A DNA stretch of 58,249 nt from Alphaproteobacteria bacterium. GTDB lineage: Bacteria > Pseudomonadota > Alphaproteobacteria > RF32 > CAG-239. The translations under genes and the position numbers were made by a program. Below are positions 18,591-44,574 of the stretch, piece after piece (positions within the stretch are counted from its first letter, which is position 1; every line of letters starts with the position of its first letter). The stretch covers positions 1 to 58,249 of the forward strand of contig JAGCXO010000032.1 of the NCBI GenBank assembly GCA_017961285.1, read 5' to 3'. Below the pieces are notes generated by a model. The model was not told where the DNA came from. It ran no database searches and was given only the letters and a program-made list of their open reading frames with translations.

Positions 18591-18625
18591 TCCCATTGAT
18601 TCCCAAAAAATCCCATGCTATACCA
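18591..18625. promoter_or_regulatory. MraZ-binding direct repeats
   Basis: TCCCA at 18591, 18601, 18611 and TACCA at 18621 (10-bp period; TGGGA on the minus strand), upstream of mraZ. Confidence 0.8.
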
Positions 18626-18661
18626 TAGGAAGTTGTCAACTAATTTAACAAGGAATCGGCT

Positions 18662-19126
18662 TTGAGAAAGACTTTTCTCTTTATGGATACAGTAGTCAAT
18701 AAGGTGGACGCCAAAGGGCGCGTCTCATTGCCTTCAGACTATCGTGCAATTGTTAAAGAATTATCAACGGAGATTGTTTGTTATCGCAGCCTTACTTCTC
18801 CTTGCATTGAGGGCTGTGCCGAAGAATTGCTTGAAAAAATTGCCGCAGATATGGAAACCTCACTTGATTTCTTTTCGCAAACACAAGATGAGCTTACTAA
18901 CTTGATTTTTGGTGATGCCAGAAGATTTTCTTTTGACAGCACCGGTAGAATTTTGCTCTCTGAAAAATTGTTAAAACATGCTCAAATCACAGACACTGCA
19001 GTTTTTGTCGGTAAAGGAAGAAAATTCCAAATTTGGAATCCGGAAAATTGGGCAAAAGAAGAAAAGAGGATTCGTAAAGAGATTGCATTAAAAAGACCAT
19101 CTTTAACAATGAAAGGCGGCAACTAG
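18662..19126 (+). CDS. mraZ: Transcriptional regulator MraZ
   Basis: NKVDAKGRVSLP, DSTGRILL, VFVGKGRKFQIWNP; TTG start with an AAGGA Shine-Dalgarno. Confidence 0.95.
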   Translation: MRKTFLFMDTVVNKVDAKGRVSLPSDYRAIVKELSTEIVCYRSLTSPCIEGCAEELLEKIAADMETSLDFFSQTQDELTNLIFGDARRFSFDSTGRILLSEKLLKHAQITDTAVFVGKGRKFQIWNPENWAKEEKRIRKEIALKRPSLTMKGGN

Positions 19127-19127
19127 A

Positions 19128-20054
19128 ATGATGCAGAAACATATACCGGTTATGCTTAATGAAGTTATTTCAAGCTTGGCTCCGACATCGGGAAAGGTAT
19201 ATGTTGACGCAACTTTCGGTAACGGCGGATACAGCGAAGCGATTCTTAAAAAAGCAGATTGCAAAGTTGTTGCTATTGACAGAGATCCCAATGTTTGCGC
19301 AAGAGCCGATGAGTTTAAGAAAACTTATGGCAAGCGTTTTGATTTTTGCCGCGGGTGTTTTGCCGATATCGATTCTTTGGTAAATGAAAATGTTGACGGC
19401 ATTGTGTTTGATATCGGCGTTTCATCTATGCAACTTGATGAAGCAGACAGAGGGTTTTCTTATGCCAAAGAAGCAAAGCTTGATATGAGAATGTCTTGTC
19501 AGGGTGTTTCGGCTTTTGATTTAGTCAATAAGCTTTCGGAAAAAGAGCTGGCAGATTTGATTTATAACTACGGCGAAGAAAGAAAATCGAGGCAAATTGC
19601 TTCGAAAATTGTCGAAGCAAGAAAGACCAAACCCATTCAAACAACAACCGAGTTGGCTGATATCGTGCATCAGGTTTTGTATAAGAAAAACGGTGCTCCG
19701 GATCCGGCAACAAGGACTTTTCAAGCTTTGAGAATTGCTGTTAATGATGAGTTGGCGCAGTTGGAACAAGGTTTGAAAAACGGACTTAAAATTCTGCGTG
19801 AGGGCGGAAAAATGGTTGTTGTTACCTTTCATTCGCTTGAAGACAGAATTGTTAAAAACTTTTTTGCGCAAAATACAAGTAAAAAAATTCATGTTTCACG
19901 CTACGGCAATAATAAAAATGTTTCTAAATTCGCATTTGCAGAGTGTTCCAAAGCAATTGTTCCTTCGGCTGAAGAAATTGCTCAAAACTCACGCGCTCAT
20001 TCTGCAAAATTGCGCTATGCAACAAAATCTATGGAGGTAAATGATGATGAGTAA
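19128..20054 (+). CDS. rsmH: 16S rRNA m4C1402 methyltransferase
   Basis: HIPVML, DATFGNGG, DIGVSSMQLD, FQALRIAVNDEL, FHSLEDRIVK. Confidence 0.97.
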   Translation: MMQKHIPVMLNEVISSLAPTSGKVYVDATFGNGGYSEAILKKADCKVVAIDRDPNVCARADEFKKTYGKRFDFCRGCFADIDSLVNENVDGIVFDIGVSSMQLDEADRGFSYAKEAKLDMRMSCQGVSAFDLVNKLSEKELADLIYNYGEERKSRQIASKIVEARKTKPIQTTTELADIVHQVLYKKNGAPDPATRTFQALRIAVNDELAQLEQGLKNGLKILREGGKMVVVTFHSLEDRIVKNFFAQNTSKKIHVSRYGNNKNVSKFAFAECSKAIVPSAEEIAQNSRAHSAKLRYATKSMEVNDDE

Positions 20055-42556: not shown

Positions 42557-42673
42557 TTATATCATTTGCAAAAAAACAGCTAGAAACCACAGTGAAGATA
42601 AAAAAATACATTTTGCAATCAATGGATGGTTACGCATATTACTTGTTCCGATTAAAAATAGAAGTAAAAAAAT
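42557..42673 (-). pseudogene. 3' fragment of a small two-TM membrane (immunity-like) gene
   Basis: IFLLLFLIGTSNMRNHPLIAKCIFLSSLWFLAVFLQMI begins at the point where the upstream Tlde1-like similarity ends. Confidence 0.4.
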
Positions 42674-42950
42674 TTGGCCCTTTGTTGGCAATATTTTGGT
42701 ATTGGGCACTTTGAAAATCTGGTTGTCCAGACATCGCATCTAAATTAGCTACCTGTCCGTTATTATTATGCAATCCCAAATTTTGCCCATCAAAAGTCAT
42801 ATAACAGTTTGGATCATTAGATGTTGGTTGCAGTTGACTTGACGTCTGCATATTCTTAATATTGCTTCCGATATTAGAAGTTCCAAAGCCGTAGTTATTA
42901 TCCGCATTAGTTCCCCAAAAGTTGGTTGTATACTGTGGATAGTTTGTCAT
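42639..42950 (-). pseudogene. Orphan toxin-tip cassette: shared repeat plus truncated DUF2778/Tlde1-like domain
   Basis: First 36 aa duplicate part of 43193-44017; then YMTFDGQNL..AMSGQPDFQSAQYQNIANKGP, truncated at the GP motif; ATGA overlap with the upstream gene. Confidence 0.65.
42843..42942. repeat. 100-bp direct repeat, copy 2
   Basis: 98/100 identical to 43739-43838. Confidence 0.97.
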
Positions 42951-43126
42951 TCCATCATTCGCAGTTCAACCCACGTTTGTTTACACCAATCTTTCGTTTT
43001 TCCTGATAATATACATTCATTAACATATTCATGTTTTAGATAGACTTCAAATAGAAACAGTAATACTAAATAAATTACAGGTATTGCTAATACGACAAGT
43101 AAGCTCTTAAAAATTTTCTTTTTCAT
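42947..43126 (-). CDS. Small single-TM protein, putative immunity protein
   Basis: MKKKIFKSLLVVLAIPVIYLVLLFLF..ECILSGKTKDWCK; GAGGG SD; directly follows the putative toxin gene. Confidence 0.6.
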   Translation of the reverse strand: MKKKIFKSLLVVLAIPVIYLVLLFLFEVYLKHEYVNECILSGKTKDWCKQTWVELRMME

Positions 43127-43192
43127 GCGTCCCTCAAATATTAAGATATGACGAGCATTATATAAATAAATGCTCATCATATCAATATCAAT

Positions 43193-44017
43193 TTATTTAA
43201 TGCCTAGCTTTCGCATATTTGGCGTTCTTCTATCATCAAGTAAATCCTCGCAACTTGTATTCGGATTATAATATCCTAGATTACTACCATAAAGATTATT
43301 TTGCAAATCTTTTTGACTATCTTCCATGATTTCATCATGACTCTGTCCTGTAATTCTTTTAACTGGATAATCCATAAGGTATTCTTTAGCATAGCCAAGT
43401 GCTATACCATTTCTTCTGCTCTTAGGACTAATTTTGGCAAGTTCACACTGCAAAAGAGGATGATAATAATTATCTATATCCGCACCTTGACCGGAGCCAA
43501 AAGTTTTTACGAGTTGGTTTCCTGTTTGTTTCATTTTTTTCCAATAATCATATGCTATTTTTGTATCAGCCGCTAGTTCTCCTAAATTTTCTCTAGCTTT
43601 CCTAATTTGTTCCGGTATAGACATTATACCATTTACAGCGGTATTTCCCCACTGTTTAACCGTATTCCAAGCACTGCTTTCCGGTTGTTGAGAAACCTGA
43701 GGTTGAACAGGTTGAGGTTGTTGCGGAACAGGTGCCATCGTCTGCATATTCTTAATATTGCTTCCGATATTAGAAGTTCCAAAGCCGTAGTTATTATCCG
43801 CATTAGTTCTCCAAAAGTTGGTTGTATACTGCGGATAGGTCGTTATCCCCTGATTATTCATCTTCGTCATCAGGTCATTTTCTCGGTTAACTCGTGCCGT
43901 TTGATATGCTAACTCATCACGCGTCGTAAACCCAGAGTGATCAACACCATAGGTGTCAATCGGATTACCGTTGCTTGCATACCCCAACGGCGAGGTGTAC
44001 TGTTTCCAAAAGCTCAT
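43193..44017 (-). CDS. Putative polymorphic toxin: novel N-terminal domain, P/Q linker, serum-amyloid-A-like tip
   Basis: GGAGGT SD; GADIDNYYH..CELAK..AKE..DSQKDLQNNLYG resembles SAA GADKYFH..DAAQ..ARE..DSLADQAANEWG. Confidence 0.6.
   Translation of the reverse strand: MSFWKQYTSPLGYASNGNPIDTYGVDHSGFTTRDELAYQTARVNRENDLMTKMNNQGITTYPQYTTNFWRTNADNNYGFGTSNIGSNIKNMQTMAPVPQQPQPVQPQVSQQPESSAWNTVKQWGNTAVNGIMSIPEQIRKARENLGELAADTKIAYDYWKKMKQTGNQLVKTFGSGQGADIDNYYHPLLQCELAKISPKSRRNGIALGYAKEYLMDYPVKRITGQSHDEIMEDSQKDLQNNLYGSNLGYYNPNTSCEDLLDDRRTPNMRKLGIK
43739..43838. repeat. 100-bp direct repeat, copy 1
   Basis: Encodes YPQYTTNFWRTNADNNYGFGTSNIGSNIKNMQT. Confidence 0.97.
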
Positions 44018-44094: not shown

Positions 44095-44126
44095 ATAGTT
44101 AGCAAGGTTCTAGCTATAGTTAGCAA
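44095..44126. repeat. Short direct repeat ATAGTTAGCAA x2 (21-bp period)
   Basis: Copies at 44095-44105 and 44116-44126, across the stop of the upstream gene. Confidence 0.7.
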
Positions 44127-44574
44127 AAGCTTTTTTAAATTCTCGATTGTTGGCTTGGGCTAATTGATTGAGCTTGTTTTCTATGTTTGTATTTTTATAC
44201 GGAATATCCACAGTTTTAGCTTTATTCTTAAGAAACCAGATAACAAAAGCTCTTGCTGAAAGAGTTTTTCCTGATTTTTGATATTCCTTAAAATGCCGAT
44301 ATTGCAAATTCTTAAAATAATCCCTAAACGGAGCGTATTTTTTATCGCGCTGTTTACCGCGATTTATTGCTTGTTGCTTTCTATCTATTTTTATGGCTGC
44401 ATCAGTGCTTGTTGCACGCATTTCACACCATTCTTCTCTGCTTTCGGCTTGCATCTCTTTTGCCCATGCGATTATTTCTTGTTGTAATTTCTTGTTTTTG
44501 AGCAACTCTTTATTATGTATAAACAAACTATTTAATTTGCGCAAGGACTCGCCGGGTATAGTTTCTTCTTCCAT
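44110..44574 (-). CDS. Hypothetical basic helical protein
   Basis: 154-aa ORF with AGGA SD; no family recognised. Confidence 0.6.
   Translation of the reverse strand: MEEETIPGESLRKLNSLFIHNKELLKNKKLQQEIIAWAKEMQAESREEWCEMRATSTDAAIKIDRKQQAINRGKQRDKKYAPFRDYFKNLQYRHFKEYQKSGKTLSARAFVIWFLKNKAKTVDIPYKNTNIENKLNQLAQANNREFKKAFANYS

Follow-up and report, generated by a model that had tools for sequence, protein, structure and literature searches.

The probable toxin gene and its small neighbour

Encoded on the reverse strand of contig JAGCXO010000032.1 of an alphaproteobacterium (GenBank assembly GCA_017961285.1; GTDB lineage RF32, CAG-239), of which the 58,249 nucleotides analysed are referred to here as the window, is a 274-residue protein (positions 43193–44017) that probably serves as a polymorphic antibacterial toxin. 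The protein is composed of three parts: an uncatalogued N-terminal domain (N-domain, residues 1–93; 43739–44017), a low-complexity linker rich in proline and glutamine (residues 94–143; 43589–43738), and a C-terminal domain of 131 residues with the fold of serum amyloid A (SAA), referred to here as the tip (residues 144–274; 43196–43588). Downstream of the tip, on the same strand, is a gene for a 59-residue membrane protein (42947–43126), the putative immunity protein.

The reading frame opens with an ATG preceded, at a distance of 7 nucleotides, by a strong ribosome-binding site (AAAGGAGG), and is further supported by homologues: a search of 5.8 billion proteins returned 332, nearly all from gut-metagenome Alphaproteobacteria. 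Many of these share the N-terminal ~95 residues only and continue into other C-termini, and the linker differs among homologues in both length and sequence. The protein contains neither a hydrophobic segment nor a signal peptide, and is expected to be soluble and of low hydrophobicity (maximum Kyte–Doolittle mean over 19 residues of 0.04). In the full-length AlphaFold2 model, the C-terminal domain has a predicted local distance difference test (pLDDT) score of 88–98, residues 77–144 are disordered (below 50, with 31–41 across the linker), and the N-domain is of modest confidence, with a helix at residues 32–55. The window copy is flanked by rplM/rpsI and mutS, and its surroundings contain no phage genes. 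Nothing useful came from single-sequence scans against Pfam, NCBIfam and PHROGs, whether of the toxin, of the immunity protein or of their neighbours.

The tip is a remote relative of serum amyloid A

An earlier note on this DNA, made from its letters and open reading frames, had proposed an SAA-like domain at 43193–43600. This stretch corresponds to residues 140–274 of the toxin, and the motifs quoted there are all present in it (AYDYWKKMKQ at residues 155–164, GADIDNYYHPLLQCELAK at 178–195, AKE at 210–212 and DSQKDLQNNLYGSNLG at 233–248). Direct searches of Protein Data Bank (PDB) sequences with phmmer and with a hidden Markov model (HMM) of the tip family found no SAA and only noise, such as VirB11 at an E-value of 0.6, and an intermediate profile was therefore needed to make the link. 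Among the matches of the tip to PDB sequences, as among its structural matches, there was also no TelC chain.

Serving as this intermediate are sister tips carried on the same N-domain. Eight toxin homologues with other tips score 49–65 bits on the Pfam SAA model (cut-off 30.8), and a profile of such Pfam-SAA-positive sister tips (A2) matches the sequences of the SAA1, SAA2 and SAA3 crystal structures with E-values down to 8e-22. Aligned with hhalign, a profile of the window-type tip built from 25 sequences (A1) matches A2 with a probability of 97.1% and an E-value of 5e-11 over 78 columns. The A1 HMM, run over 1.84 billion representative proteins, gave 162 matches, 57 of them at an E-value of 1e-10 or better; of 85 distant matches scanned, 38 are Pfam-SAA positive, the best at 1.4e-26. 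When the tip is placed in a three-way alignment with SAA fragments, D182, H186, E212, D237 and G244 are invariant, and the spacing of 26 residues from the histidine to the glutamate equals that of mouse SAA3. In a six-frame scan of the genome with the Pfam SAA model (PF00277), four other loci matched and the window locus did not. Weak matches to DUF6973 (PF22322), a family with no mention in the literature, were seen in 8 of the 25 tip relatives (best E-value 0.0024) and were not built on.

The AlphaFold2 model of the tip alone (pLDDT 95.6, predicted template modelling score 0.87) has four long helices (residues 145–173, 182–196, 198–222 and 227–250) followed by two short C-terminal ones (113–116 and 123–128 in tip numbering). 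Compared with the PDB by Foldseek, the best six matches of the tip and the best seven of the full-length protein are all SAA1 or SAA3, with probabilities of 0.99–1.00, target-normalised template modelling (TM) scores of 0.62–0.68 and r.m.s.d. of 3.3–4.4 Å over 106–107 columns. For the tip alone, all of the top six have a probability of 1.00, with TM-scores of 0.51–0.54 when normalised by the query and 0.66–0.67 when normalised by the target; the matches that follow SAA have probabilities of 0.20 or less. The corresponding E-values are weak (0.07–0.6), as is usual for small helical bundles. The fold evidence is insufficient when taken alone and sufficient together with the profile evidence. Both the profile match and the structural match, the absence of which would by the earlier note have refuted its proposal, were found, and we are nearly certain that the tip is a true, if remote, relative of SAA in fold and in descent.

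Predicted active site

The Lipocone superfamily (Burroughs, Nicastro and Aravind, eLife 2025, PMC12419801) brings SAA together with Wnt, TelC, VanZ and PTDSS1/2. The predicted Lipocone site consists of a histidine in helix 2, a glutamate in helix 3, an acidic or otherwise polar residue where helix 3 ends, an aspartate in helix 4, a downstream polar residue and a capping glycine (PMC12419801). By alignment, all six predicted positions are occupied in the tip, by H186, E212, D216, D237, N241 and G244, respectively; D182 and D233 complete the set of key acidic residues. Across the 85 distant relatives the histidine, glutamate and aspartate are invariant, and the equivalents of D216, N241 and G244 are at least 90% conserved; within the family of the tip, too, all six are invariant or conserved to at least 90%.

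The window subfamily carries several features of its own. Inserted between helices 1 and 2 are 11 residues, and between helices 3 and 4 a further nine; the predicted catalytic histidine opens the sequence HPLLQC; and the C terminus is prolonged by a conserved extension (…C…LLDDRRTxNMRK). Two cysteines of the tip, C191 and C256, form a near-invariant pair.

A membrane-anchored partner accompanies the tip

The putative immunity gene begins with an ATG at 43126, preceded by a ribosome-binding site (GAGGGA). Its 59-residue product has an MKKK N terminus, one transmembrane helix (approximately residues 8–26; maximum Kyte–Doolittle mean over 19 residues of 2.95) and a 33-residue tail with two cysteines set in the motif C-x3-G-x6-C-x3-W-x-E-L; some members of the family have four cysteines. 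Within the 66-nucleotide gap between the toxin stop and the immunity start is a promoter-like site (43157–43185, reverse strand; TTGATA-17-TATAAT, 11 of 12 consensus positions), which is a consensus match only, in a region with no excess of such sites.

Among 201 genomes of the family, the window-type tip occurs in 50, which belong to 10 of the 23 genera, and 30 of the loci were examined. At least 24 of these 30 have, directly 3′ of the tip, a homologous or like-built mini-protein, the gene for which often overlaps the 3′ end of the toxin gene by ~44 nucleotides. Toxins with another type of N terminus, such as P0108 and those of loci L027–L029, keep this partner, and what accompanies the SAA-positive tips of this genome is a different protein, of 123 residues and with multiple transmembrane helices. 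The mini-protein goes with the tip and not with the carrier, and in this it looks like a cognate immunity protein. The membrane-anchored immunity partner that the earlier note had placed at 42947–43126 is thus borne out as a frequent companion of the tip, and we regard a toxin–immunity role for the pair as highly probable.

An uncatalogued carrier with exchangeable tips

This genome, of 1.196 Mb and 92% complete, holds 10 full copies of the N-domain and two partial ones. The domain occurs in 58 of the 151 genomes of the order (5 of 20 genera), with 1–20 copies in each. It has no match in Pfam, NCBIfam, PHROGs, PDB or BFVD. A profile of the domain met only chance-level matches in PDB and Pfam (kappa-carrageenase at an E-value of 1.3), Foldseek comparison with viral models gave nothing credible, and a match of residues 16–68 to VP1 (PDB 6shl; E-value 0.32) was taken as chance. 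We presume that the N-domain is an export/loading or trafficking module. The earlier note had pointed to SAA-like domains at the C-termini of some Rhs-type proteins; an Rhs-type carrier does not apply, the carrier here being a short uncatalogued domain of 93 residues.

Joined to this N-domain are tips of the window type, three Pfam-SAA-positive subtypes, Tlde1 (PF10908), GH108 (PF05838), GH24-like lysozymes and several unassigned types. One of the tips, found in P0097, P0083, P0096, P0103 and P0109 (KHQY.SCVGSTGG...YKE...KDLKNDFIGS), is matched by hhalign to the A1 profile with a probability of 92% (E-value 7e-7) and to the SAA-positive tips with 2%, and is probably a still more divergent subfamily of the SAA fold. 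In the metagenome homologue P0101, the N-domain is followed by the first helix of a window-type tip (GELAADTKIAYDYWKKMNQTGKQIVKTFGSGQGA) and then by a GH108 lysozyme; this natural chimera, in which the tip is switched inside helix 1, shows recombination within a tip. Altogether, six SAA-superfamily domains are encoded in the 1.2-Mb genome. Elsewhere in it (contig C23, 41125–41538, forward strand) lies a stand-alone SAA-like reading frame of 137 residues (GGDNYYHRLAMCENAQ...KE...DSWKDMENNVEG), which is without an N-domain and resembles the tip of a 372-residue toxin in locus L015.

Traces of tip exchange and other neighbouring genes

Bracketing the linker, tip and immunity cassette are two copies of a 117-nucleotide direct repeat, 896 bp apart and 93% identical. 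The first (43739–43855) is the end of the N-domain, and the second (42843–42959), which comes directly after the immunity gene, encodes a stretch with 88% amino acid identity to N-domain residues 54–93 and heads a second, orphan tip that has no complete N-domain (42639–42950, reverse strand). The start of the orphan tip resembles Tlde1/DUF2778: it tracks an intact toxin (P0085, with a precomputed PF10908 match) up to ‘NIA.KGP’, diverges, and then stops, and looks like a truncated Tlde1/DUF2778 cassette. A repeat followed by an orphan tip is the usual anatomy of tip exchange. Partly within the same stretch, a 60-residue reading frame (42557–42739, reverse strand) has a C-terminal half (LLFLIGTSNMRNHPLIAK...) that matches membrane proteins of 111–120 residues near toxins in loci L011 and L015, themselves 42% identical to each other; it is probably the remnant of another immunity gene.

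On the 5′ side of the toxin is a gene for a charged, soluble protein of 154 residues (44110–44574, reverse strand), a recurrent partner with homologues (46–78% identity) directly upstream of N-domain toxins in at least six other loci. Scans against Pfam, NCBIfam and PHROGs gave no family match for this protein, which may be a chaperone, adaptor, regulator or accessory factor of the toxin. At another locus (L013, 5351–8107), beside a window-type toxin, are two paralogous proteins of 306 and 312 residues, whose C-terminal domain is VgrG3-like (PF21277) and whose short N terminus is a different one, each followed by an opposite-strand gene for a secreted protein of 148–154 residues; these constitute a second toxin–immunity family in the same island.

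Prophage associations and candidate delivery routes

Close homologues of the toxin (L011 and L012) lie at the end of a prophage, beside lysozyme, holin-like and spanin-like genes and an integrase. Contig C41 of this genome carries, at 1–22800, a podovirus-like prophage with small and large terminase, portal, scaffold, capsid and tail genes and a repressor. Flanking it are six N-domain genes, three at the tail-gene end and three between the small terminase and the repressor, each accompanied by small membrane-protein genes; one SAA-type copy among them (18615–19309) is frameshifted. The toxin may be delivered through a podovirus-like prophage, by being loaded into it or released together with it, or may be taken up in the manner of a colicin once lysis has occurred.

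Proposed mode of action

Our preferred reading, held with moderate confidence, is that the protein is a polymorphic antibacterial toxin with a divergent tip of the prokaryotic SAA (prok-SAA) type of the Lipocone superfamily, working as an enzyme on lipid-linked head groups at the periplasmic face, with the 59-residue protein as its immunity. The lineage-specific N-domain of 93 residues would direct export or loading, and the tip, a domain of four helices plus one, would be active where the inner membrane of a rival faces the periplasm. There its substrate may be a phosphate-linked lipid head group, on which it would work by phosphoesterase or transferase activity, with putative catalysis by H186, E212 (with D216) and D237 (with N241). 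The proposed target is modelled on the cutting of lipid II by TelC; other undecaprenyl-linked carriers, or phospholipids, are possible. The transmembrane mini-protein would bind the tip at that same membrane face and so shield the producer.

That the tip is the business end of a toxin, as the earlier note supposed, agrees with the joining of the N-domain to many C-termini, with the membrane-anchored partner and with the repeat-headed orphan tip. Periplasmic action is suggested by four features: those sister tips that can be recognised are enzymes of the cell wall; the immunity protein combines a positive-inside N terminus with an outward, cysteine-bearing tail; the near-invariant C191/C256 pair in the tip is matched by a cysteine pair in the immunity tail; and every published immunity protein of a Lipocone toxin is a transmembrane protein or a lipoprotein. 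As to chemistry, the earlier description of the tip as lipid-active agrees with the Lipocone hypothesis (PMC12419801), and the kept histidine, glutamate and aspartate would point to a head-group enzyme rather than to passive lipid binding. By analogy with TelC, we judge an enzymatic attack on a lipid-linked head group to stand at even chances.

Several observations weigh against this reading. No experiment has been made on any prok-SAA protein, and the enzymatic model rests on the distant TelC and PTDSS1/2 (PMC12419801). The Pfam SAA model misses the tip and 24 close relatives even at an E-value of 10 (gathering threshold 30.8 bits); the model misses whole bacterial subfamilies. Structures of TelC and Wnt are not among the Foldseek matches. 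The sNxxGR motif of the SAW clade reads N240-N241-L-Y-G244-S245 in the tip, keeping the asparagine and the glycine, with an asparagine in the place of the ‘small’ residue and a serine in that of the arginine. The P0065-type tips, carried on the same N-domain, are of no recognisable function and might work in the cytoplasm. Besides lacking a signal peptide, the toxin has no domain that can be recognised as one for secretion or trafficking. In the genome, which is 92% complete, no TssC, Hcp, VirB4 or phage-sheath markers were found, for which reason delivery by a type VI, type IV or contractile system was rejected.

The tip could instead be a non-catalytic helical bundle that perturbs membranes or sequesters lipids; in the way that animal SAA binds high-density lipoprotein (HDL) lipids and retinol, it would bind lipid or a lipid carrier, and would damage the envelope stoichiometrically. 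Of the explanations considered, this one comes nearest to how the earlier note had put it. Its closest structures are indeed SAA1 and SAA3, including retinol-bound SAA3 (6py0), enzymatic activity has never been shown for an SAA-family protein, and the immunity protein is membrane-anchored. We consider a pure lipid binder unlikely, given that the histidine, glutamate and aspartate are invariant across very divergent subfamilies, a pattern of catalytic sites rather than of lipid-binding surfaces, that the tip has no hydrophobic helix (the maximum of 0.04 given above applies here), and that the sister tips recognisable on this carrier are enzymes. A pore-forming, colicin-like bundle was ruled out, there being no hydrophobic hairpin and no such structural match. 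The prophage associations, with close homologues at a prophage end and six N-domain genes around the prophage on C41, raise a further explanation: a phage factor for breaching the envelope, borne in the virion or released at lysis, with the small membrane protein providing superinfection exclusion or self-protection of the prophage. Several sister tips are lysozymes, and Phage_Mu_F occurs in 4 of the 85 distant relatives, as such a factor would lead one to expect; yet the window copy lies between rplM/rpsI and mutS away from phage genes, the N-domain has no PHROG or BFVD match, and the 10 full and two partial copies, the orphan tips and the tip-specific immunity are the signature of polymorphic toxins and not of one virion enzyme, making this explanation quite unlikely.

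Two further explanations concern the resemblance to SAA itself. A mimic of host SAA, secreted to act on the animal host through immune signalling or through binding of retinol or HDL, would suit an organism that lives in animal guts and a fold that equals that of the host protein. Against it are an identity of only 16–21% to animal SAA, the insertions and cysteine pair peculiar to the tip, a membrane immunity gene on the side of the producer, the alternation with peptidoglycan-degrading tips on the same carrier, and the published direction of descent, from bacteria to animals (PMC12419801); we hold it to be very improbable. An accidental likeness, in which a generic helical bundle unrelated to SAA happens to look like it, might be argued from the empty single-sequence Pfam and PDB searches and from Foldseek E-values above 0.05, but is already refuted by the profile–profile E-value of 5e-11, by the recovery of 38 Pfam-SAA-positive proteins with the HMM, by a motif register and spacing identical to those of SAA, and by Foldseek, in which only SAA chains reach a probability of 0.99 or more; hardly any weight is left to it.

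Relation to known systems

The general idea of SAA-fold toxin tips is already published: prok-SAA was named, on computational grounds, as one of several Lipocone tips of polymorphic toxins (PMC12419801). The immunity proteins listed for Lipocone toxins in the main text of that work are transmembrane proteins or lipoproteins only, from which action outside the cytoplasm was inferred, and the one named for prok-SAA has a helix and four strands with four cysteines. The toxin described here shares with prok-SAA a soluble cone of four helices with a short fifth one, the six predicted positions, the C-terminal place in a modular toxin and an adjacent membrane-anchored immunity. It differs in that the window subfamily is missed by Pfam SAA, has two insertions, and reads HPLLQC for HARGNY and NNLYGS for sNxxGR; in that its carrier is the 93-residue N-domain, as against the PAAR, LXG, VirD4-binding, type IX secretion system and MuF carriers of the published main text; and in that its immunity protein is a mini-protein of 59 residues with one transmembrane helix and two cysteines, which is not among the types published there. 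New are a divergent subfamily missed by Pfam SAA, its own family of mini immunity proteins and an uncatalogued carrier domain, this last in bacteria with none of the type IV, type VI or contractile-system markers that were sought.

With animal SAA1 and SAA3 (PDB 4ip8, 4q5g, 6pxz and 6py0) the tip shares the fold (target-normalised TM-score 0.66–0.67, r.m.s.d. ~3.4 Å, 107 columns), the motifs D-x-Y-x-H, R/K-E and D-x3-D-x3-N-x2-G, and an equal His-to-Glu spacing. The two are 16–21% identical in sequence, and the bacterial tip has in addition two loop insertions and a 25-residue C-terminal extension with a cysteine pair. The bacterial tip is moreover fused to a toxin carrier and linked to an immunity gene, whereas SAA is a secreted acute-phase apolipoprotein.

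The proposed mechanism is modelled on TelC of Streptococcus intermedius, a lipid II phosphatase toxin of a type VII system with a lipoprotein immunity, TipC (Whitney et al. 2017, as cited in PMC12419801). According to the account given in PMC12419801, TelC cuts lipid II between undecaprenol and diphosphate, is the only Lipocone toxin to have been tested, and acts only outside the cytoplasm, with its immunity at the outer face of the membrane. The relation between TelC and the tip, as drawn from that account, is at the level of the superfamily only: TelC belongs to another Lipocone clade, with which the tip has no sequence or Foldseek match, is delivered in a Gram-positive bacterium by an LXG/type VII route, and has a known substrate.

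The tip and the mini-protein can also be set beside a bacteriocin and its immunity protein of another kind. As a working analogy for the toxin we take colicin M, a bacteriocin that is soluble, lacks a dedicated secretion system and cleaves lipid II in the periplasm; the protein that confers immunity to it, Cmi, is small, N-terminally anchored and periplasm-facing, with a disulfide. The fold of colicin M is unrelated to that of the tip, and its receptor-binding (FhuA) and TonB-dependent import domains have no recognisable counterpart in the window toxin.

Implications

For decades it has been unclear what the SAA fold does in biochemical terms, and the proposal of 2025 that it harbours a lipid-head-group enzyme is a hypothesis for members of the SAA family. 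The cassette of a 131-residue tip and a 59-residue immunity protein is a compact object on which to test it, with predicted catalytic residues, many natural variants, and toxicity and rescue as the read-out. We suggest, tentatively and with considerable doubt, that the N-domain defines an undescribed route of toxin delivery in small-genome gut Alphaproteobacteria and that SAA-fold tips cleave lipid carriers; if this is true, the system would provide the first genetically tractable assay of SAA-fold chemistry. With 12 copies of the N-domain and six SAA-superfamily domains per 1.2 Mb, small-genome gut Alphaproteobacteria invest heavily in such toxins.

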